The translations under genes were made by a program, and so were the position numbers. A stretch of 64,000 nucleotides of DNA from Patescibacteria group bacterium. Lineage in GTDB: Bacteria > Patescibacteriota > Patescibacteriia > SCPX01. Under the pieces are notes generated by a model. It saw only the letters and a list, made by a program, of their open reading frames with translations. It did not search any database and was not told where the DNA came from. This document shows positions 2,105-33,575 of this stretch, piece after piece. The stretch covers positions 6,876 through 70,875 of the forward strand of contig SCPX01000056.1 in NCBI GenBank assembly GCA_004298615.1, in the 5' to 3' direction. Every line of letters starts with the position of its first letter. Position 1 is the stretch's first letter.

Positions 2105-3817
2105 ATGAAAAAATTCTTAATTTTTTTGATCATTGTTTTTGGGTTATTTGTTTCCGCAAATGTTTTTGCCGCGGAGAAGATTAATTCTTTTGCCGCTGAA
2201 ATAAATATCAATACAGATGCGAGTATCAATGTTTCCGAACGGATTGAATATGATTTCGGGTCAGCTCAAAAACACGGCATTTTCAGGGCTATCCCAATAA
2301 AATATCTAGCGCGAGGCGGGAGTTTCGCTTTGCGAATTTCCGATATTTCCGTTGCTGATGTAAAAGGCGCTCCGTATCAATTTACTACCTCATATCCGGG
2401 AAATAATATTCAAATAAAAATCGGCGATCCGAATATTGAAATTGCCGGCCGGCATATTTACATTATCCATTACACCATCAAGCGCGCGATAAATTTTTTC
2501 AATGATCACGACGAACTTTATTGGAATATTACGGGCAATGATTGGCCGGTAGCAATCGGTAGCGCTTCGGCCAAGATTATTTTGCCGCAAAAAATTGCCG
2601 GCGCTGATATCCAATCCGATTGTTTTGCCGGACCTTTTGGCAGTACGGAAAAGTGCAATTCAATGCTAAAAGGGCTGGGCCAAATAGATTCGGTCAGCTT
2701 CAATGAAAATCAATTGGCAGTTAATAACGGATTAACTATTGTGGTCGGTTTTCCAAAAGGAATGGTAATTAAGCCGAGCGTTTTGGTAAGTGCCGTAGAC
2801 TCGATAAGGGACAATAAAGGAATTTTATTTCCGATTTTTGTTCTTGTTGTTTATTTTGGTATGTGGTATAGGCGTAGGCGGTACCTAACTGATTGCGGGC
2901 CAACTATCGCGCAGTACGATCCGCCAGAGAATCTTTCGCCGGCTGAAGCAGGAATTTTGTGGCACGAACGGAGATGGGCAAGAGCCTCTAATATTGTTGC
3001 TGAAATTATTCATTTAGCCATTAAGGGTTATATCAAAATAATAAAAAAAGAAAATGGTGATTATGTATTAGAGTTGTTGCGCGATGATTTGCATGACCTG
3101 ACTGATTGTCAAAAAGAGATAATACAAGAAATAATATTAAAAAATGGGACTGATAAGAAGATCGCCCTTTCTCGCGTCGCTTTAAATTTAGAGAGCATAA
3201 TTTATTATCTTAATAACTGTTTTATAAATAATCTTATTAAAAATGGATATTTTTCCATATTTTATCGTCGCATTAATCAGATTGGATCAATTATTAGCTT
3301 TCTCCTTATAATCCCAAGTTTTGCTATTGGGATGATAGTTTTAGGCGGATTTATAACCGGTGCTTTAAGTTTCTTTAGCGCTATGATTATAATTTTTATT
3401 TTTAGTGCTTTTATGCTTACAACGAAATCTAAAGAAGGGGTTAAAGCCATTTGGTATATTGCGGGTTTGAAAATGTATATTGAGGTGGCGGAGGAGAGAC
3501 GAATACAATTTCATAATGCACCGGATAGAAATCCAGAACATTTTGAAAAGCTTTTGCCCTACGCTATAGCTTTAGGATTAGAAAAGCGGTGGGCGCAACA
3601 GTTCGTCGATGTATACACGCAAGCTCCAATGTGGTATGTTGACGACAAAATGAATCATTTCAATGTTAATAAGTTTGCGACAAGTGTTGCTTCCGTGAGG
3701 ATGTTGGGCGCTAATACTCTTCCAGAGTCTAGTGGAGCAAGCAGTGGGCGTAGTGGATTGAGCGGCGGCGGGGGATCGGGCGGCGGTTTTGGCGGTGGCG
3801 GTGGAAGGAGTTGGTGA
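2105..3817 (+). CDS. DUF2207-like membrane protein. It has a signal peptide, an extracellular domain and a TM region, and ends in a Gly-rich tail '...SW'.
   Basis: It is a paralog of the next ORF, with near-identical N-terminal domains ('AAEKINSFxAEIxINxDASINVSERIEYDFGSAQKHGIFR'). The C-terminus reads 'GGGGSGGGFGGGGGRSW'. Confidence 0.6.
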   Translation: MKKFLIFLIIVFGLFVSANVFAAEKINSFAAEININTDASINVSERIEYDFGSAQKHGIFRAIPIKYLARGGSFALRISDISVADVKGAPYQFTTSYPGNNIQIKIGDPNIEIAGRHIYIIHYTIKRAINFFNDHDELYWNITGNDWPVAIGSASAKIILPQKIAGADIQSDCFAGPFGSTEKCNSMLKGLGQIDSVSFNENQLAVNNGLTIVVGFPKGMVIKPSVLVSAVDSIRDNKGILFPIFVLVVYFGMWYRRRRYLTDCGPTIAQYDPPENLSPAEAGILWHERRWARASNIVAEIIHLAIKGYIKIIKKENGDYVLELLRDDLHDLTDCQKEIIQEIILKNGTDKKIALSRVALNLESIIYYLNNCFINNLIKNGYFSIFYRRINQIGSIISFLLIIPSFAIGMIVLGGFITGALSFFSAMIIIFIFSAFMLTTKSKEGVKAIWYIAGLKMYIEVAEERRIQFHNAPDRNPEHFEKLLPYAIALGLEKRWAQQFVDVYTQAPMWYVDDKMNHFNVNKFATSVASVRMLGANTLPESSGASSGRSGLSGGGGSGGGFGGGGGRSW

Positions 3818-3893: not shown

Positions 3894-5603
3894 ATGATTA
3901 AATATTTAAGAAAAATATTTATTTTCACCTTTCTTGCCTTCGGTTTATTTATTTCCCCAAACGCTTTTGCCGCGGAAAAGATTAATTCCTTTGACGCTGA
4001 AATAAAAATCAATGCTGACGCGAGCATAAATGTTTCCGAACGGATTGAGTATGATTTCGGGTCAGCTCAAAAACATGGGATTTTCAGGGATATTCCGATA
4101 AAATACCAAGCCAGAGGAGGAAACTTCGCTTTGCGAATTTCCGATATTTCCGTAAACGATGAGAAAGGAACGCCGAATAAATTTACAACATCATATCCGG
4201 GCGACAACATTCAAATCAAAATCGGCGATCCGAATATTGAGATTACCGGCCGGCATATTTATATTATAAACTATACGATTAAACGCGCGATAAATTATTT
4301 TGATAATCACGATGAATTGTATTGGAATATTACGGGTAATGATTGGCCGGTGGCGATCGGCAGCGCTTCGGCCAAGATTATTTTTCCGCAAAAAATTGCC
4401 AGCGCTGATATCCAATCCGATTGTTTTGCCGGACCTTTCGGCAGCACGATAAGATGCAATTCCGATTTTATGCAATCCGGCATGACCAATTATGTTGGTT
4501 TTGATAATAATCAGTTGTCCGCATATAACGGATTAACCATTGTCGTCGGATTTCCCAAAGGAATCGTGATAAAACCGAGTAATTTTGAAGTTGCTTTGGA
4601 AACGGCCAAGGATAATTGGATAATCGGTTTGCCGATTATCGTTTTGATCGTTTGTTTTTATTTATGGTACACGCGCGGACGGGATCCGGCCGGCCGGGGC
4701 ATTATTATCGCCCAGTACGATTCGCCGGACAATCTGACTCCGGCCGAGGTGGGGACAATCGCGGACGAACACGCGCAGAATAAAGACATAACCGCCGAGA
4801 TAATTTTCTTGGCAACGCTCGGTTATTTGAAAATCAGACAAACTGAAAATAAAATTTTAATTTTCAAATCAAAAGATTACGAATTGGAAATAATTAAAAA
4901 CGATTTCAGCCAACTCAATGATTTTCAAAAGACAATAATGAATGGATTGTCCAAGGAGGCGGCCGCTCAAATAGTAAAATTATCTGATCTGAAAAATAAA
5001 TTTTACAAAGATCTGAAAGAAGCTAAAGATAAAGTTTATCAATCCGTAGCCGAAAAGGGTTATTTTAAGACTAACCCCAATAAAATCAGGGGAATATTCG
5101 CTCTCATCGGCGTGCCAATGATTATGCTGGGATTTTTTCTTGGAGGTTTTTTTGGCGCAATCGGGACAATCAGTCTGGCCGTATCAGGCGCTGTTTTGGT
5201 GATATTCGGTTATATTATTCCGGCGCGCACCAAAAAAGGAGTGGAGACAAAAGAGCACATTTTGGGACTCAAATTATATATGTCGGTGGCGGAAGCGCGG
5301 CGTTTGGAATTCCATAACGCTCCGGAAAAGAAGCCGGAAGTTTTTGAAAAACTTTTACCGTACGCGATGGCGCTGGGGGTGGAAAAACAATGGGCCAAGC
5401 AATTTGAAGGAATATATGATCAGCAGCCAAGTTGGTATCAGGGATCGGCCGGGGCTTTTAACGCCGTTATGTTTACCAGTATTATGAGCGATTTTTCGCA
5501 TTCGGCCAATTCAACAATGGCATCATCGCCTGGAGGCGGAAGCGGTTTTTCCGGAGGAGGTTCGGGCGGCGGGGGAGGCGGCGGCGGGGGAGGGAGCTGG
5601 TGA
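3894..5603 (+). CDS. DUF2207-like membrane protein, tandem paralog of the preceding ORF
   Basis: It shares the same N-domain and 'EFHNAPEKKPEVFEKLLPYAxALG' motif, and ends in a poly-Gly tail 'GGGSGGGGGGGGGGSW'. The start is taken at 'MIKYLRK'; the 5' extension to 3789 overlaps the upstream gene. Confidence 0.6.
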   Translation: MIKYLRKIFIFTFLAFGLFISPNAFAAEKINSFDAEIKINADASINVSERIEYDFGSAQKHGIFRDIPIKYQARGGNFALRISDISVNDEKGTPNKFTTSYPGDNIQIKIGDPNIEITGRHIYIINYTIKRAINYFDNHDELYWNITGNDWPVAIGSASAKIIFPQKIASADIQSDCFAGPFGSTIRCNSDFMQSGMTNYVGFDNNQLSAYNGLTIVVGFPKGIVIKPSNFEVALETAKDNWIIGLPIIVLIVCFYLWYTRGRDPAGRGIIIAQYDSPDNLTPAEVGTIADEHAQNKDITAEIIFLATLGYLKIRQTENKILIFKSKDYELEIIKNDFSQLNDFQKTIMNGLSKEAAAQIVKLSDLKNKFYKDLKEAKDKVYQSVAEKGYFKTNPNKIRGIFALIGVPMIMLGFFLGGFFGAIGTISLAVSGAVLVIFGYIIPARTKKGVETKEHILGLKLYMSVAEARRLEFHNAPEKKPEVFEKLLPYAMALGVEKQWAKQFEGIYDQQPSWYQGSAGAFNAVMFTSIMSDFSHSANSTMASSPGGGSGFSGGGSGGGGGGGGGGSW

Positions 5604-6040: not shown

Positions 6041-6613
6041 TTATATTTTGCCAACCAAATCCAGCCCGGGCTTCAGAGTTTTTTCTCCCGGATGCCAGCT
6101 GGCCGGACAGACCAGACCTTTATTTTCCCGCACGAATTTCGCGGCTTGAAGTTTTCTCAAAATCTCGGCGCCTGATCGGCCGATGCTGTTGTCGTGAATA
6201 TCGCTTGCTTTAAGTACGCCATCCGGATCAATGATGAATGTCCCGCGCAAAGACAAGCCCTCATTTTCCAGATAGGTGCCGAAAGCGCGGCATAAATTTC
6301 CGGTCGGATCGGCCATCATCGGGTATTTGATTTTTTTAATGACCGCTGAAGCGTCATGCCACGCCTTGTGAGTAAAAACCGTGTCTGTACTCACGCTTAG
6401 GATCTCCGCTTCGTTTTTCTGGAATTCCGGATAAAGATCGGCCGCTTCCCCCAATTCGGTGGGGCAGATAAATGTAAAATCAGCCGGATAAAATAGAAGC
6501 ACGAGCCATTTTCCCCGGTAATCAGAGAGCTTTATTTTTTTAATTTCTTCTTCGTGATAAGCGTCTGATTCAAAATCGCTTATTTTTTGGCCTATTGCTG
6601 TCATAAAATGCAT
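6041..6613 (-). CDS. 2-Cys peroxiredoxin (AhpC/Prx family)
   Basis: The peroxidatic motif 'FTFICPTE' is present, along with a resolving Cys in 'LVCPASW', at typical Prx length. Confidence 0.85.
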   Translation of the reverse strand: MHFMTAIGQKISDFESDAYHEEEIKKIKLSDYRGKWLVLLFYPADFTFICPTELGEAADLYPEFQKNEAEILSVSTDTVFTHKAWHDASAVIKKIKYPMMADPTGNLCRAFGTYLENEGLSLRGTFIIDPDGVLKASDIHDNSIGRSGAEILRKLQAAKFVRENKGLVCPASWHPGEKTLKPGLDLVGKI

Positions 6614-28184: not shown

Positions 28185-28955
28185 ATGATTCCGTGGTTTC
28201 AAATAGAACAAATCCATTTCGGGCCCCTCACGATTCAAGTGTGGGGCCTCTTGGTATCTCTGGGTTTTATGCTCGGAGCGTTTGTGCTTTGGAAAGAAGC
28301 GAGGCGCAAGGGAGTGGATGCCAATATCATTTTGGATCTTTTTATTTTAATTTTAGCGGGCGCAATTATCGGCGGGCGGCTTTTTTATGTTGCCGAGCAT
28401 TACAAAGAGTATATCGGCGATCTTTTGCGGATTTTTCTAATTTCCGAAGGGGGGATGTCTTTCTTTGGAGGATTTTTAGCTGCTTTGGCGGCCGGAGTGG
28501 TTTTTGTTCATAGAAAAAAGATGCCGGTGTGGAAAATCACGAACATAATCGCGCCAGCTTTGGCCGCCGGCTACGCAATCGGCCGATTCGGCTGTCTTTT
28601 CATTCACGATCATTTGGGGAAAATCACCAATTTCTTTTTGGGTATAAAGACGCCAGACGGCACGATCCGCCACGAGCCGATAATTTACGAAATTTTTTTC
28701 AATGGCCTGACGCTTTTCTTTGTTCTCTGGTTTTTGCGAAAGAGGATCAAAAAAGACGGAATGCTTTCGATTATTTTCCTTGTCTGGTTTTTGTCCGTGC
28801 GGTTCGTCACTGACTTTTTCCGCTCCGCCGATTTGCCCGATTCGGACATAAGATATTTCGGCTTAACTCTGGCGCAGATAACTATAATAATATTTGCAGT
28901 ATTTGTTTTGCTGATTTCTAAATATTTTATAACGAAGAAACAAAACGCACATTAA
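28185..28955 (+). CDS. lgt: Prolipoprotein diacylglyceryl transferase
   Basis: Lgt motifs are present ('GGRLFYV', 'GGMSFFGGFLAA', 'GRFGCLFIHDHLG'). Confidence 0.85.
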   Translation: MIPWFQIEQIHFGPLTIQVWGLLVSLGFMLGAFVLWKEARRKGVDANIILDLFILILAGAIIGGRLFYVAEHYKEYIGDLLRIFLISEGGMSFFGGFLAALAAGVVFVHRKKMPVWKITNIIAPALAAGYAIGRFGCLFIHDHLGKITNFFLGIKTPDGTIRHEPIIYEIFFNGLTLFFVLWFLRKRIKKDGMLSIIFLVWFLSVRFVTDFFRSADLPDSDIRYFGLTLAQITIIIFAVFVLLISKYFITKKQNAH

Positions 28956-28980: not shown

Positions 28981-29128
28981 CGTCGCAATTCAAAATATGT
29001 CGTGCATCAAACGATCGTCACATATACGACATTATTTCTTAAGATTAAAAAATAATACGATATGGATTCATCGAGTAAAAGCAGTTTATGATATGTCGTG
29101 CATCAAACGATCGTCGCATATACGACAA
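28981..29128. repeat. Left ~150-bp direct repeat unit containing two 36-bp palindromes (28997-29032 and 29093-29128) separated by a conserved 'atacgatatggattcatcgagtaaaagcagtttatg' core
   Basis: Seen in sequence. The unit is about 85% identical to unit 31246-31392. The palindrome is ATGTCGTgcatcaaaCGATCGtcacatatACGACAT. Confidence 0.65.
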
Positions 29129-29229
29129 AATTATATTATGCTATAATAAATTAAGGCGAAATAAAAGCGAGAAAAGAAGAGGCGACGGGTGTTTGAATTA
29201 ATAAATTAATAACGCAATTATCAATAATT

Positions 29230-29814
29230 ATGAAAGGCGAAAATAGATTGAAAATATTGGAGTTTCTTGAAAATTCCGGCCAGGCATTAGAGGAATTGTT
29301 TTTTATTTTTACAGTGCCCTACGGCACTTCTTTTCACGGGGCGGAATATCGTTTGAGAAAATTTCGAGAGGAGAGAGAGAATTTAAAAACCCTCAAAAAA
29401 GATAAACGGCGGTTTGATGACTTGATTTATCGTTTGCGCAAAGATGTGTTGATTGATGATATTAAGAGTAAAAAAGGGTCTTTTTTGCGCCTAACGCAAA
29501 GGGGAATAGAAATTTTAAACAAACTGCGCGACAAAAAAGACAAAGCAATGCCTGACGCAAAATATCAAAGCCAAAATGACGATAATTTAAAGATAATTAT
29601 TTTTGATATTCCCGAAGGGGAGAAAAGAAAGCGCGTTTGGCTGCGTTCCGCCCTTAAAAACTTAAATTTTACAATGCTTCAGAAAAGCGTTTGGGCGGGG
29701 AAAAGCAAGCTGCCCCACGAGTTCGCGATAGATTTGAATAAACTGAAAATAATTTCTTATGTAGAAATTTTTGCTATCAGCAAGACCGGAAGCTTGAAGC
29801 AATTAAAATTTTAA
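29230..29814 (+). CDS. PaaX-like transcriptional regulator (wHTH N-terminus plus a PaaX_C/Cas2-fold-like C-terminus)
   Basis: 'KIIIFDIPEGEKRKRVWLRSALKNLNFTMLQKSVWAG' resembles the PaaX C-terminal block. The N-terminal 'LKILEFLENSGQ' is wHTH-like. The family call is by motif only. Confidence 0.45.
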   Translation: MKGENRLKILEFLENSGQALEELFFIFTVPYGTSFHGAEYRLRKFREERENLKTLKKDKRRFDDLIYRLRKDVLIDDIKSKKGSFLRLTQRGIEILNKLRDKKDKAMPDAKYQSQNDDNLKIIIFDIPEGEKRKRVWLRSALKNLNFTMLQKSVWAGKSKLPHEFAIDLNKLKIISYVEIFAISKTGSLKQLKF

Positions 29815-29841
29815 AAAAACAAATCTACCAAGATTCGAACG

Positions 29842-29877
29842 ATGTCGTACATCAGACGATCGTCGCATATACGACAT
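29842..29877. repeat. Third copy of the 36-bp palindrome (atgtcgtacatcagacgatcgtcgcatatacgacat), 30 bp upstream of gene 29908
   Basis: Seen in sequence. Confidence 0.6.
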
Positions 29878-29907
29878 ATCTGAACAGCGTTGTAATCCGA
29901 TGGTATA

Positions 29908-30543
29908 ATGCTAATGAAAAAAAATATGGACAATGAGAATAATCATAATCCCGAGCCTACCCAAGAGATGCCATTGGTTGATATTGGAAAAGATAATCAT
30001 GATCAAACAGATCAGCAAAAAAGAGACGAGCGAATCCTGCAAATTGATCAGGAGTTGGCCGAGTTTTCAGTTAAGGCGCAAACCGAAGACGAGATAAACG
30101 CCGTTCAAATGGAAAGAGATCAAGAATATCAAAACAAAATCCAAGAACTGGAGACGGGCCTGAGCCAGCCGCTTTCCGAAGAAACAAAAGATAAAATTCA
30201 TCAGAATATGGTGGATAGCGTAATCGATCGGGCACGAAGAGTGAATAATAAGTTTGATAATCTGCAGATATTAAGAAATACGGAAAATCTTATTACTAAC
30301 ATGGAATCGCTTGGTGCAAAAATTGACAATAATTCAAGGATTAGGTTGGTAGAGATATTATCTTCGCCTCAGATATTGCATGTTAATAGGCGCGAACTAG
30401 TAAAACTATTTGGAGTTGATGAGAAAGATGACGCATTAGTCAGAAAACTTTATCAACCATTCAATGAAAAGTACGGGAAATTATTAAAAGAATGGTTGAT
30501 AAAAGAAAATAAATTTTTTTCTCCAAATCAGAAATTAAATTAA
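29908..30543 (+). CDS. Hypothetical acidic coiled-coil protein (211 aa)
   Basis: The ORF has coding-like composition. No TM helix and no recognised motif. Confidence 0.45.
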   Translation: MLMKKNMDNENNHNPEPTQEMPLVDIGKDNHDQTDQQKRDERILQIDQELAEFSVKAQTEDEINAVQMERDQEYQNKIQELETGLSQPLSEETKDKIHQNMVDSVIDRARRVNNKFDNLQILRNTENLITNMESLGAKIDNNSRIRLVEILSSPQILHVNRRELVKLFGVDEKDDALVRKLYQPFNEKYGKLLKEWLIKENKFFSPNQKLN

Positions 30544-30584
30544 CCGGAAATCAAGAAGTTCAAATCAATGGCGAAACGATAGAT

Positions 30585-31226
30585 ATGGCGGAACTTAATG
30601 ATTCTAAGATTTCTGAACTAGGAATAAAAAAAATTAAACGAATTATAGATGGAATCATTAATGACAATGAAAGTACTGCCGGACAAGGTATGTTCTGGAA
30701 TGTTTTGGTGCCAAAAGAAATACCTTTTGTTTTAAAGACTGAGCGCAAGCTTTATGATGAAAGTCAGGAAAAATACAGAAGAAAATCACTATTACAATAC
30801 CCGATTATTAGAGATAGTATAGGAAAAGAATTTTTACCTAAACAAGCTGTTTTGCTGGCGCACGATTCAGAACGATTTTATGTTTTGCAAGAAAAAATGC
30901 CATTGCAAAAAATGACAAGTATTAGAAATAAAAATATTGATTCAGTTATTGCTGGTGATTACGGACAGGAAATTGTAAACGCTTTGAGCGAAGAGAAAAA
31001 TAAAGAAAAATTGAGGGAATTTATTTCCGGAGTTGAGCGTCTCTATAAAGATCATAAACTAATAATTGATACGGTTGGGGATAATTTATTTTTTAATGTT
31101 TCCGAAGGCGGTGATTTGAATATAAAGCTGGTGGATTACGGCGCCTTCAAACAGCGTGGGGATGTCCCAAATAGTGACATAAAAGAAGTGCTAGTGTTTT
31201 TAGAAAAATTGACGAATTTATTATAG
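30585..31226 (+). CDS. Small atypical protein-kinase-like protein (RIO/Bud32/Kdo-kinase-like size, no activation segment)
   Basis: A Gly-loop-like 'STAGQGMFWNVLV' is followed by 'VLK' (beta-3 Lys). 'LIIDTVGDNLFF' resembles a catalytic loop (D...N), and 'IKLVDYGAF' is DFG-like. This is an inference from motifs only. Confidence 0.4.
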   Translation: MAELNDSKISELGIKKIKRIIDGIINDNESTAGQGMFWNVLVPKEIPFVLKTERKLYDESQEKYRRKSLLQYPIIRDSIGKEFLPKQAVLLAHDSERFYVLQEKMPLQKMTSIRNKNIDSVIAGDYGQEIVNALSEEKNKEKLREFISGVERLYKDHKLIIDTVGDNLFFNVSEGGDLNIKLVDYGAFKQRGDVPNSDIKEVLVFLEKLTNLL

Positions 31227-31245
31227 GCGAACTTTTTTTTTGAAT

Positions 31246-31392
31246 TACTGCAATTCAAAATATGTCGTAGATCTACCAATCGTCACATATACGACATTAT
31301 TATCTTGAGATTAAAAAAATACGATATGGATTCATCGGGTAAAAGCAGTTTATGGTAAGTCATACATCAGCCGATCGTCATATATACGACAT
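31246..31392. repeat. Right ~150-bp direct repeat unit, with palindrome copies at 31262-31297 and a degenerate one at 31357-31392
   Basis: Seen in sequence. Together with 28981-29128 it brackets the three-gene cassette. Confidence 0.65.
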
Positions 31393-31540
31393 TTTTACCG
31401 ACTTATTTCATGACATAACTTTTATAATATTTGGTCGCACATTGTGCGATCGCTTCATCTGCGACTAGAATTATTTTGCCCCCATTTGTTTTTTTATAAT
31501 TTAATAGTATAATGAAAAAATATTTGTTTGATTTGAAATC

Positions 31541-32476
31541 ATGCCGATTGTTGAAGTAAAAAATTTATCCAAATATTATCCCAAGCCCGATAATCCGAAA
31601 GAAAAATTCGCGGCCGTGGATGATGTTTCATTTGAAATAAAAGAAGGGGAGACTTTTGGCATTCTGGGGCCGAACGGCGCGGGCAAAACCACGACTTTGG
31701 AAATGCTTGAGGGATTGAAAGTTATTGAAAAAGGGGAAGCGCTTGTCTCTGGAATTTCCGTAAAAAACGATCCGATGAGAGTGAAACAGATAATCGGGGT
31801 CCAGCTCCAGGAAAGCCATTATTTTGATTTTTTAAAACTCAAAGAATTGCTTGATTTGTTCGGAGAATTTTATCATCGCAAAATTGACGGCCTGGAATTG
31901 CTTCGCGAAGTCCAGCTGGAAGATAAAAAAGCGGCTTATACCAGGCAATTATCCGGTGGACAAAAACAGCGCCTCTCCATCGCTTCGGCTCTGGTCAATG
32001 ATCCCAAAGTGCTTTTTTTGGACGAACCGACCACGGGCTTGGATCCGCAAGCCAGGCATAATTTGTGGGATTTGGTGAAAAAAATAAAAGCCAAGGGGAA
32101 AACAATCGTCTTGACCACGCATTATATGGAAGAGGCGCAAATCTTATGCGATCGCTTGGCGATTATGGATCATGGAAAAATAATCGCGCTGGACACGCCG
32201 GATAATCTTGTGAATAAATACGCCCCGATATCGCATATTATTATAAAAACGGATCAGCCGCTGCCAGACGAAGAATTGAAGAATATTCCGCATGTTCAAA
32301 GCATATCATCAGAAAACGATTTTTATGATTTTTGGGTAAGCAATCCGGAAGAGGTTTTACTGCGCTTGGTGGAATTTGCTAAATCGCGCGGCATTAAAAT
32401 TTTATCACTGCGCGTTGAGCGGTCTACTTTGGAAGATGTTTTTTTGAGCTTGACGGGAAGAGAATTAAGAGATTGA
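31541..32476 (+). CDS. ABC transporter ATP-binding protein (ABC-2/DrrA-like)
   Basis: It has a Walker A motif ('GPNGAGKTT'), the ABC signature ('LSGGQKQRLSIA') and a Walker B motif ('LFLDEPTTGLD'). Confidence 0.85.
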   Translation: MPIVEVKNLSKYYPKPDNPKEKFAAVDDVSFEIKEGETFGILGPNGAGKTTTLEMLEGLKVIEKGEALVSGISVKNDPMRVKQIIGVQLQESHYFDFLKLKELLDLFGEFYHRKIDGLELLREVQLEDKKAAYTRQLSGGQKQRLSIASALVNDPKVLFLDEPTTGLDPQARHNLWDLVKKIKAKGKTIVLTTHYMEEAQILCDRLAIMDHGKIIALDTPDNLVNKYAPISHIIIKTDQPLPDEELKNIPHVQSISSENDFYDFWVSNPEEVLLRLVEFAKSRGIKILSLRVERSTLEDVFLSLTGRELRD

Positions 32477-32480
32477 ATTT

Positions 32481-33575
32481 ATGACTTTATTTAAACTCAC
32501 CATTGCCAATATCAAAATGTATTTGCGCGATCGGCAGGCGCTTTTTTGGGCATTCTTTTTTCCTTTGCTTTTAATGACGGTATTCGGGGTGATGAATTTT
32601 GAAGGATCGGGAAAATTAACATTGGGAGTGGTCAATCTTTCGCCATCGCCCGCGGCTGGCGAATTTGTCAGTTCGTTGGAAAAAAGCGAATCGCTGGACA
32701 TCAAAAAAGATTCCAGAGAAAACGAAGAAGCGGCGCTCAAGAAAGGGGACAGGGACGCGGTGATGATTTTGCCGGAAGATTTTCTGGCCGATCCGGCGAA
32801 AACCTCGCCTTACACAATCAAAGTTTTGGTCAATAAAGGGCGGCCCCAGCAGAGTAGTACGGCCTTGTCCGTGCTCGGCAGTATTTTTTCCGAAATGGAA
32901 AGAAATATGACGCAAAAGCCGAAATTATTCGCCATTGAAACCGAGGATGTGGTGGCGCGCAATTTGCGGTATATTGATTTTGTGGTGCCTGGGGTGGTCG
33001 CTCTTTCCATTATGCAGCTTTCCATTTTCGGGATCGGCTTTACCATTGTTGAATACAAACGCAAAGGTGTGATGAAGCGGCTTTTTGTCACACCTTTGAA
33101 ACCGCTTGATTTCACATTATCCCATGTGATTATGCGCTTGCTTGTTTCAATATTTCAAGTGAGTATTTTATTTGCCGTGGCGATTTTGGTTTTCAATGTT
33201 AATGTGCTCGGCAGTTTTGCCGCTTTGTATTTTTTCGTAATATTGGGCGGGCTTTTATTTTTAAGCTTTGGTTTCGCCCTGGCCGGCATTTCCAAGACCG
33301 AAGACGCTTTGCAAGGATTGACCCAAGTATTTGTTTTTCCTCAAATGTTTTTGGGTAATGTATTTTTTTCCACCGACGCGATGCCGGAATGGCTTCAAAA
33401 GATTGTAGTATATATGCCTTTGAATTATTTGTCGGACGCGATTCGGAAAATTTCCACCGAAGGCACTGGGCTGATGGATCTTCAAAAAGATATTTTGGGA
33501 ATTTCGGTCTGGATAATCATCGGCTTTGTCTTAGCCATTAAACTCTTCCGCTGGCGCGAAGCGGCGAATAGTTAG
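32481..33575 (+). CDS. ABC-2 family transporter permease
   Basis: It has six predicted TM helices and the ABC-2 motif region ('FVFPQMFLGNVFFS'). It follows the ATPase with a 4-nt gap. Confidence 0.75.
   Translation: MTLFKLTIANIKMYLRDRQALFWAFFFPLLLMTVFGVMNFEGSGKLTLGVVNLSPSPAAGEFVSSLEKSESLDIKKDSRENEEAALKKGDRDAVMILPEDFLADPAKTSPYTIKVLVNKGRPQQSSTALSVLGSIFSEMERNMTQKPKLFAIETEDVVARNLRYIDFVVPGVVALSIMQLSIFGIGFTIVEYKRKGVMKRLFVTPLKPLDFTLSHVIMRLLVSIFQVSILFAVAILVFNVNVLGSFAALYFFVILGGLLFLSFGFALAGISKTEDALQGLTQVFVFPQMFLGNVFFSTDAMPEWLQKIVVYMPLNYLSDAIRKISTEGTGLMDLQKDILGISVWIIIGFVLAIKLFRWREAANS

Follow-up and report, generated by a model that had tools for sequence, protein, structure and literature searches.

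Here we describe a family of 36-bp palindromic elements, and the regulator gene that they surround, in 64 kb of DNA from a Patescibacteria group bacterium (assembly GCA_004298615.1, contig SCPX01000056.1, positions 6,876–70,875 of the forward strand; G+C 44%). This whole stretch is called the window below, and positions are its own unless a comparison locus (numbered with an L) is named. The gene (29230..29814, + strand) encodes a protein of 194 aa that we call mini-PaaX, and the elements, S1 to S6, lie within 2.5 kb around and beyond it. To the left is lgt, the gene for prolipoprotein diacylglyceryl transferase (28185..28955, +; Pfam LGT, E 8e-47), and to the right an ABC exporter operon consisting of an ATPase (31541–32476, +) and an ABC-2 permease (32481–33575, +), recognised by Pfam ABC_tran and ABC2_membrane_3. 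We consider it probable that the 36-bp elements are cognate duplex sites of the adjacent mini-PaaX, which would most likely repress its own promoter.

Scanning the whole window with the pattern ATGTCGT-N8-CGATCG-N8-ACGACAT, at up to three mismatches, returned exactly five matches (S1–S5), all in the same orientation, as against 0.00 in shuffled sequence. These are the five copies, at the same coordinates, that the initial annotation had listed; it had read the spacers as N7, which would make 34 nt in all, whereas the true spacers are N8 and the elements 36 nt long. It had also given every copy perfect 7-bp arms around a palindromic CGATCG, a description that holds for S1 (ATGTCGTGCATCAAACGATCGTCACATATACGACAT; 28997..29032) and S3 (29842..29877) only. 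Both match the pattern without a mismatch, and S3 begins 28 nt past the regulator stop codon and abuts the promoter that follows. S2 (29093..29128), the promoter-proximal site of the regulator gene, has one mismatch (it ends ACGACAA), while the degenerate copies S4 (31262..31297; core CAATCG) and S5 (31357..31392; left arm AAGTCAT) have one and two. In the window lineage the 36-mer can also be read as two abutting units, each TCGT-N7-ACGA, and this reading exposed a sixth site that had been missed, S6 (31432..31467, core 31435–31464; TCGCACATTGTGCGA followed directly by TCGCTTCATCTGCGA). It lies between S5 and the ABC gene and has the architecture of S1–S5 with other boxes, TCGC and GCGA. As a general architecture the two tandem 15-mers were rejected, being true of the TCGT-box lineage only.

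Distances between successive copies from S1 to S5 are irregular (96, 749, 1420 and 95 nt). The five copies and the variant are packed into 2.5 kb of the 64 kb, where 0 would be expected, and no further copy occurs outside 28997–31467 anywhere in the window, even with three mismatches; the widespread REP-like (repetitive extragenic palindromic) element that the initial annotation had allowed for thus has no copy elsewhere in these 64 kb. The middle parts of the window copies are not self-complementary (12–15 of 18 mirrored positions match), and as single strands they fold no better than shuffled sequence (z −0.3 to −2.2).

The regulator matches the Pfam family PaaX_M (PF20803), the Cas2-like central domain of PaaX, over residues 117–187 (E 8.1e-12; 45.5 bits with a cutoff of 24). 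The protein stops directly after the Cas2-like domain and so lacks the C-terminal effector domain, which accounts for its score of only 18.7 bits against the PaaX equivalog TIGR02277 (cutoff 264.55 bits). Models of Cas2 itself are borderline (PF09827, 23.4 with a cutoff of 23.8; TIGR01573, 25.1 with a cutoff of 24.5) and match about 37 residues. An AlphaFold2 model (mean predicted local distance difference test score, pLDDT, 83.8) consists of helices, a beta-hairpin wing at residues 75–88 and a ferredoxin-like domain. A Foldseek search of the PDB with this model ranked PaaX of E. coli (8a39) and Rv0674 (3kfw) first, though weakly, at a template-modelling (TM) score of 0.27; Cas2 proteins and VapD followed. 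Profile searches of the PDB gave weak MarR-type matches only, and no Pfam match to the N-terminal PaaX domain was found in the regulator. An aspartate (D126, in the motif FDIPE) at the position of the Cas2 catalytic-type aspartate is invariant in the family alignment. From these comparisons the product appears to be an N-terminal winged helix fused to a C-terminal Cas2-like domain without the effector domain, a 'mini-PaaX' and not a true PaaX, and presumably the protein that binds the sites. The PaaX-like regulator of the initial annotation is therefore borne out in its PaaX_M domain and not in its full architecture.

Relatives are numerous. An exhaustive search with a hidden Markov model recovered 664 clusters (50% identity) at E ≤ 1e-30 and 1512 at E ≤ 1e-10; a word-index search gave 195 matches. 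As far as names are given, the family is confined to Patescibacteria, the Candidate Phyla Radiation (CPR); no relatives were found among viral contigs. Public records commonly name its members 'Cas2' or 'hypothetical', and our searches of the literature on PaaX, Cas2-like proteins, Patescibacteria and palindromes found no description of the family or of its motif.

The elements overlap promoter-like sequences. S2 ends 13 nt before the TATAAT hexamer (29142–29147) of a putative extended −10 element of the regulator gene, TGCTATAAT (29139..29147, +), which we read from the sequence. The same spacing recurs at L001, L005 and L129, and the putative −10 region is conserved among orthologues as ATTATG(C/T)TATAAT. 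S2 would thus span about −49 to −14 of this promoter, a placement that predicts autorepression. E. coli PaaX is an autorepressor with a long palindromic operator, TGATTC-N27-GAATCA, and blocks its own promoter by steric hindrance (PMC9493321). Beyond the regulator, 3 nt past S3, a promoter-like site (TGAACA-17-TATAAT with a TG extension; 29881..29909, +) scored 10/12 in a promoter scan, the best of the region, and its position implies that the next gene would start, almost or entirely leaderless, at the ATG at 29914. In many other lineages the palindrome appears to contain the promoter: its centre reads TTGACG in 12 of 55 upstream copies but in only 5 of 66 downstream ones; TATAAT-like hexamers are most frequent 17 nt beyond this centre, at the edge of the arm; and the ATG follows 25–50 nt from the palindrome centre, so close that leaders would be very short or lacking.

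The association of gene and palindrome extends well beyond the window. We assembled about 90 loci with relatives at 35–96% identity, 80 of them from a metagenome scan using the family alignment, and scored the best 17+17-nt dyad in the 250 nt upstream of the ATG and the 200 nt past the stop codon, with a cutoff of at least 14/17. A palindrome was present upstream at 51 of 78 loci (65%) and just past the stop codon at 61 of 84 (73%), while the cutoff was reached by a single one of the 300 control windows taken at these loci (0.3%). The palindromes measure 34–36 bp, and 101 of 134 sites have CGATCG as the hexamer at their centre, the remainder being mostly CGGCCG, CGGTCG or CGACCG. In every lineage examined the sites co-occur with an adjacent, putatively winged-helix gene of the PaaX_M/Cas2-like type. 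Across a set of 122 sites, mirrored cells are complementary in 91.9% of cases, compared with 56.8% in shuffles; this set was pre-selected for dyad symmetry, which makes the count partly circular, and the weight rests on the control windows and on the within-locus permutation given below.

Orthologues at 79–96% identity have two copies upstream and one shortly past the stop codon, even where the neighbourhood is unrelated. At L001–L005 and L120 (79–83% identity), where the downstream copy lies about 28 nt past the stop codon, a large surface protein is encoded upstream and DUF3467, a phosphatase and rpiB downstream, unlike in the window; L002 and L003 come from Hainich groundwater. A synteny test found no homologues of the L004 neighbours in the window. 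DNA similarity between the window and loci of the L001 type starts 5 nt before S1 and stops at the last base of S3; a distal upstream copy equivalent to S1 is present at L001, L004, L005 and L128. Across the family, the flanking copies lie 625–776 bp apart (median 688; about 690 from centre to centre). Co-directional genes downstream of 25 members are unrelated housekeeping genes (alaS, PrkA, Pup ligase, PfkB, Rpe, TsaE, UDP-glucose dehydrogenase), and no locus in the comparative set holds two family members. The gene's only conserved partner is its own palindrome pair. The initial annotation had placed sites in front of each transcription unit, whereas what is conserved is one copy on either side of this gene. 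The best reading at the level of the family is that palindrome, gene and palindrome form a self-contained, putatively autoregulated module of variable position without a conserved target gene.

The composition of the arms suggests how such sites might be read. The outer arms are wholly different between lineages, yet common to both copies within a locus. When the copies of a locus are compared, arm positions 2–5 and 14–16 are almost always the same, while positions 11–13 vary in roughly one comparison out of three, as would be expected if a linker connected two boxes that are read. We accordingly describe the site as a candidate composite of a lineage-specific outer box, a near-universal ACGATCGT core and a variable linker. 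The outer box also tracks the helix that precedes the beta-hairpin wing of the protein: TCGT occurs with RF.D..Y.L(R/K), CTATC with KQKYYNLIYKLK and GTCAAC with RHRFYSMMNKLEKD, a covariation that would fit direct readout.

On this basis we propose that the Cas2-like domains dimerise and thereby place two winged-helix domains about three helical turns apart, where they would read the outer boxes (TGTCGT and ACGACA here, lineage-specific elsewhere), while a conserved part of the protein would read the near-universal central box and arm positions 11–13 would act as an unread linker. Protein bound at S2, on the extended −10 promoter of the regulator, would bring about autorepression with the cooperative help of S1, and S3 would abut the −35 of the next gene's promoter. 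By analogy with PaaX at its own promoter, protein on the palindrome may occlude RNA polymerase. The downstream copy may serve as a looping partner or a roadblock.

The variant S6 appears to belong to a different member of the family. TCGC-type palindromes like it flank paralogues of 55–57% identity at L006, L132, L133 and L136, and S6 is thus probably the site of a paralogue encoded outside the window, within which no paralogue for it was found. At L006, a TCGC-type and a TCGT-type palindrome, about 83 bp apart, form a pair at either end of a two-gene unit (1408–1525 and 3608–3727) that comprises a 394-aa protein of unknown function and the regulator; the paired sites are conserved and the spacer between them is not. 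This arrangement suggests that two paralogous regulators may share neighbouring sites at L006, as S5 and S6 may be shared in the window.

How the sites came to lie in front of the ABC exporter can be traced by comparison. At L209 and L210 (Lgt 81% identical), found like L208 by way of Lgt homologues, dsbD-dsbA-lgt leads directly into the ABC ATPase gene, the 3' end of lgt and the start codon of that gene overlapping. The junction is likewise uninterrupted at L208. This locus shares a 176-kb contig with L001, and the regulator module of its genome is situated about 60 kb from the lgt–ABC junction, before a DUF3467 gene. Since lgt is joined directly to the ABC genes at all three loci, the whole module of sites, regulator and cargo is a 2.6-kb insertion in the window, with lgt as its left and the ABC operon as its right boundary. 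The inserted segment measures 2.6–3.7 kb across the window, L128 (a 96% orthologue) and L129 (90%). No integrase or transposase was found at the module.

Within the insertion, the stretch that carries S1 and S2 is present twice as a direct repeat. The left copy (28985..29130, +; 146 bp) consists of a 12-nt leader, S1, a 60-bp spacer and S2, and the right copy (31250..31394, +) of the leader, S4, a 59-bp spacer and S5. The two are identical in 126 of 147 alignment columns. The spacer (57 of 60 identical) is better kept than the sites, and most changes fall within the left halves of S4 and S5, which we read as decaying duplicates of S1 and S2. At L128 the right side has a single site, a well-kept S4 equivalent centred at 6181, and neither S5 nor S6 has a counterpart; at L208, L209 and L210, where lgt is fused to the ABC gene, there is none. 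The link between regulator and ABC-2 exporter that the initial annotation had drawn is thus weak, a side effect of the place at which the module came to rest and of a duplicated promoter region that is now decaying; the ABC genes are at most a possible, lineage-specific regulatory target. In L128 the leader before the ABC gene (6289–6424) holds a long-range inverted repeat (CCCCGCAGT ... ACTGCGGGG) whose 3' arm abuts the start codon, which could be a translational or attenuation switch and is absent from the window.

A search for a target-site duplication at the lgt/ABC junction gave nothing convincing: the 19-nt match between 28878–28896 (ATAACTATAATAATATTTG) and 31415–31433 (ATAACTTTTATAATATTTG), 17 of 19 identical, links the 3' end of lgt with the region upstream of the ABC start and was equalled in one shuffle out of 500. 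A weak second repeat, seen by eye, pairs 28900–28925 with 31520–31540 (TATTTGTTT..GATTT..AAAT). L128 has neither of the two. These short repeats may, on weak grounds, be remnants of a duplication at insertion of the module. Other exact 18-mer repeats in the window (2228–2620 and 4029–4420; 12626 and 13598; 13584 and 15919) point to duplicated gene segments unrelated to the palindromes.

The cargo between S3 and S4 (29908..31226, +) consists of two open reading frames (ORFs) of unknown function (29908/29914–30543 and 30585–31226) without a Pfam or NCBIfam match. At 211 and 213 aa they resemble one gene of about 437 aa split by a frameshift at a T7 run (30514–30520): in three-frame translation the second frame is open from 30513, and with T8 the first would continue into the second. 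The second ORF contains a kinase-like stretch, 'IIDTVGDN...VDYG', read by eye. The cargo of L128 (3699–6085; window 30278–31200) differs, comprising a 258-aa protein, which resembles the first cargo ORF of the window in its N-terminal ~125 residues only, and a 485-aa protein with weak GT2-like glycosyltransferase matches. The breakpoints of this swap do not coincide with palindromes: one falls within the first cargo gene and the other some 60 nt ahead of S4. The 394-aa neighbour of the regulator at L006 has no similarity to the window cargo.

Palindromes of this kind also occur apart from the gene. A scan of a genome collection with TGTCGT-N8,9-CGATCG-N8,9-ACGACA recovered at least about a dozen CPR loci; among the matches listed, 104 of 117 loci were chance occurrences in high-GC genomes, so that the scan is useless as a measure of distribution. 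'Solo' palindromes of the form TGTCGT...CGATCG...ACGACA sit between housekeeping genes (alaS, rpsR, atpB, DUF763) in Saccharibacteria, Azambacteria and Paceibacterota (L012 3594–3629, L015 1574–1607, L061 2744–2779, L104 3061–3096), with no PaaX_M gene in the fetched blocks. A Peribacteraceae metagenome-assembled genome carries a near-identical palindrome, TGTCGTAGAGACGCCCGATCGGGCGTCTCTACGACA, on three contigs (L033 7951–7986, L062 6725–6760, L072 7202–7237; the last differs by one base), with a common flank of about 40 nt on one side and no family member in the fetched blocks. These copies, which belong to the palindrome class described here, resemble a dispersed repeat. Some family members also have perfect 34-bp palindromes of a second, unrelated kind nearby (..TTCCAACATTCT meeting AGAATGTTGGAA..; centres at L189 3636 and L198 2781 and 2837), which may be the operator of another regulator.

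The proposed recognition of the elements by mini-PaaX as duplex sites would have a close parallel in PaaX itself, the phenylacetyl-CoA-responsive repressor of the paa genes in E. coli and Pseudomonas. PaaX begins with a winged helix, as mini-PaaX appears to, and has a Cas2-like domain at its centre; it binds a palindrome of ~34–39 bp with outer arms of 6–7 bp set far apart, a layout similar to that of the window sites (PMC9493321). It differs in its length of ~305–316 aa, with a C-terminal effector-binding domain, and in its associated genes: no paa genes lie near mini-PaaX, whose neighbours in the window are lgt, dsbA/dsbD, ABC-2 and unknowns. The mini-PaaX sites, unlike the PaaX operator, also have a conserved CGATCG centre, are often fully palindromic, occur as one copy on each side of the gene and adjoin functionally unrelated neighbours. 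Looping repressors such as LacI (O1–O2), GalR (OE–OI) and DeoR likewise use at least two identical palindromes several hundred bp apart, compatible with dimer-of-dimers cooperativity; here, by contrast, the sites bracket the regulator's own gene, ~690 bp apart, with no detectable helical phasing.

Several observations weigh against the reading of the elements as operators of mini-PaaX. Structural matches of the regulator are weak (Foldseek E 4e-3 at best), all the promoters discussed here are consensus matches, and the covariation of box and helix is confounded by shared ancestry. Helical phasing between the two flanking copies was not significant (best uncorrected p ~0.05). The downstream copy lies between convergent genes at 20 of 52 loci, and at least six T occur in the next 10 nt at only 8 of 57. 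The convergent setting and the missing T-run together indicate that this copy is neither an operator of a downstream promoter nor a canonical terminator; a terminator scan found no intrinsic terminator at the window sites, and that reading was rejected. The initial annotation's proposal that the elements are operators of the adjacent regulator thus draws support from the co-occurrence, the conserved layout and the promoter overlap, and meets its difficulty in the downstream copies between convergent genes. A further difficulty is the symmetry of change. In 62 cases a difference between copies of a locus on one arm is accompanied by one at the mirrored position of the other arm, with full compensation in 43, where 25.8 ± 3.6 would be expected (maximum 44 in 5000 position-preserving permutations; slid registers gave 13–27). 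A symmetric dimer need not keep unread positions symmetric, so this excess suggests either that a hairpin or cruciform constrains the arms or that quasi-palindromes are corrected by template switching, an established mutational mechanism. Many lineages keep perfect 17/17 palindromes, and those of L010 and L140 fold at z of about −9. The window copies, on the other hand, are poor hairpins and are nonetheless conserved in sequence. Hairpin formation can therefore be no universal requirement, which favours duplex recognition.

These same features would suit a selfish or mobile module, in which the palindromes flanking the gene are hairpin or cruciform recombination or cleavage sites, recognised and possibly cut by the Cas2-like domain. 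Promoter overlap would then be secondary, and such a module could coexist with autoregulation. The empty lgt–ABC sites at L208, L209 and L210, the similarity between window and L001-type loci that stops at the outer palindrome edges, the flanking of the gene whatever the orientation of its unrelated housekeeping neighbours, the invariant aspartate, the excess of compensatory arm changes with perfect palindromes in many lineages, and the solo palindromes in other CPR genomes, with at least three flank-sharing copies in one Peribacteraceae genome, can all be read in this way. Analogues exist in the REP/RAYT units (REPtrons; RAYT, REP-associated tyrosine transposase) and in the ends of IS200/IS605 elements, where a single gene is flanked by its own palindromes with mirrored arm changes at variable positions. 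The mini-PaaX gene, however, encodes no HUH/Y1 transposase, its repeats overlap promoters, and the window lacks the tens to hundreds of copies seen in those systems. Nor was any integrase or clear target-site duplication, any extra copy in the 64 kb or any locus with two members found. The cargo replacement between window and L128 does not break at palindromes, and the window lineage keeps imperfect, non-hairpin sites of conserved sequence. Insertion polymorphism and shuffled synteny are moreover common in any accessory gene, and template switching in quasi-palindromes can yield mirrored changes without function. We regard a mobile module as unlikely, and its strongest form, an autonomous CPR element whose Cas2-like protein, independent of CRISPR, recognises its own CGATCG-centred 34–36-bp repeats in hairpin or cruciform form and possibly cleaves or recombines them, as distinctly improbable.

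If the elements acted as RNA hairpins, they would be stabilisers in the 5' or 3' untranslated region (UTR), processing sites or terminators of the regulator mRNA, possibly bound by the Cas2-like, RNase-related domain. Perfect stems of 15–17 bp in many lineages, the conserved copy just past the stop codon and the compensatory changes agree with such a role. The upstream copies, however, contain or overlap the promoter and so would not be fully transcribed, the T-run is found after few downstream copies, the window copies fold no better than shuffles, and no Rfam match was found. G–T pairs make up about a third of the non-complementary cells in the 122-site table, with no clear wobble enrichment, and the protein is modelled with a winged-helix DNA-binding region; we judge a role in RNA to be very improbable. 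Least credible of all is an origin unrelated to the regulator, whether as REP-like or miniature dispersed repeats or as the remains of an array akin to clustered regularly interspaced short palindromic repeats (CRISPR). Their length of 36 bp and partial dyad symmetry do resemble REP and CRISPR repeats, some database records call family members 'Cas2', and dispersed copies occur in the one Peribacteraceae genome. Cas2 and VapD also offer a likeness in their association with partly palindromic repeats of ~36 bp. Yet mini-PaaX differs from Cas2 in its apparent fusion to a winged helix, and its repeats bracket its own gene, with neither a regular repeat–spacer array nor a leader. An 18-mer scan found no CRISPR array in the window, where the 'spacers' between sites are genes, and no Cas1 match was found among the ORFs scanned around the cassette; the initial annotation was right to call the repeats not CRISPR-like. 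With all copies inside 2.5 kb at irregular spacings, a strict link to the gene in ~90 loci and lineage-specific arms, both forms of this explanation are largely refuted for the window.

These results have several implications for this family. The annotation of its members as 'Cas2' is misleading. As to what the modules are, candidates include plain autoregulators, insulators, elements of an addiction type and mobile units. If they were autonomous elements, they would represent a new class of selfish or mobile module, with a present-day Cas2 relative that is specific for palindromic repeats as long as those of CRISPR; and should the Cas2-like domain prove to take part in recognising the repeats, the family would bear on how Cas2 came to work with palindromic repeats. 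To our knowledge, almost nothing is known about the control of transcription in CPR/Patescibacteria. For this very large family of 664 clusters, the universal core combined with lineage-specific outer boxes provides a testable code of protein–DNA recognition.

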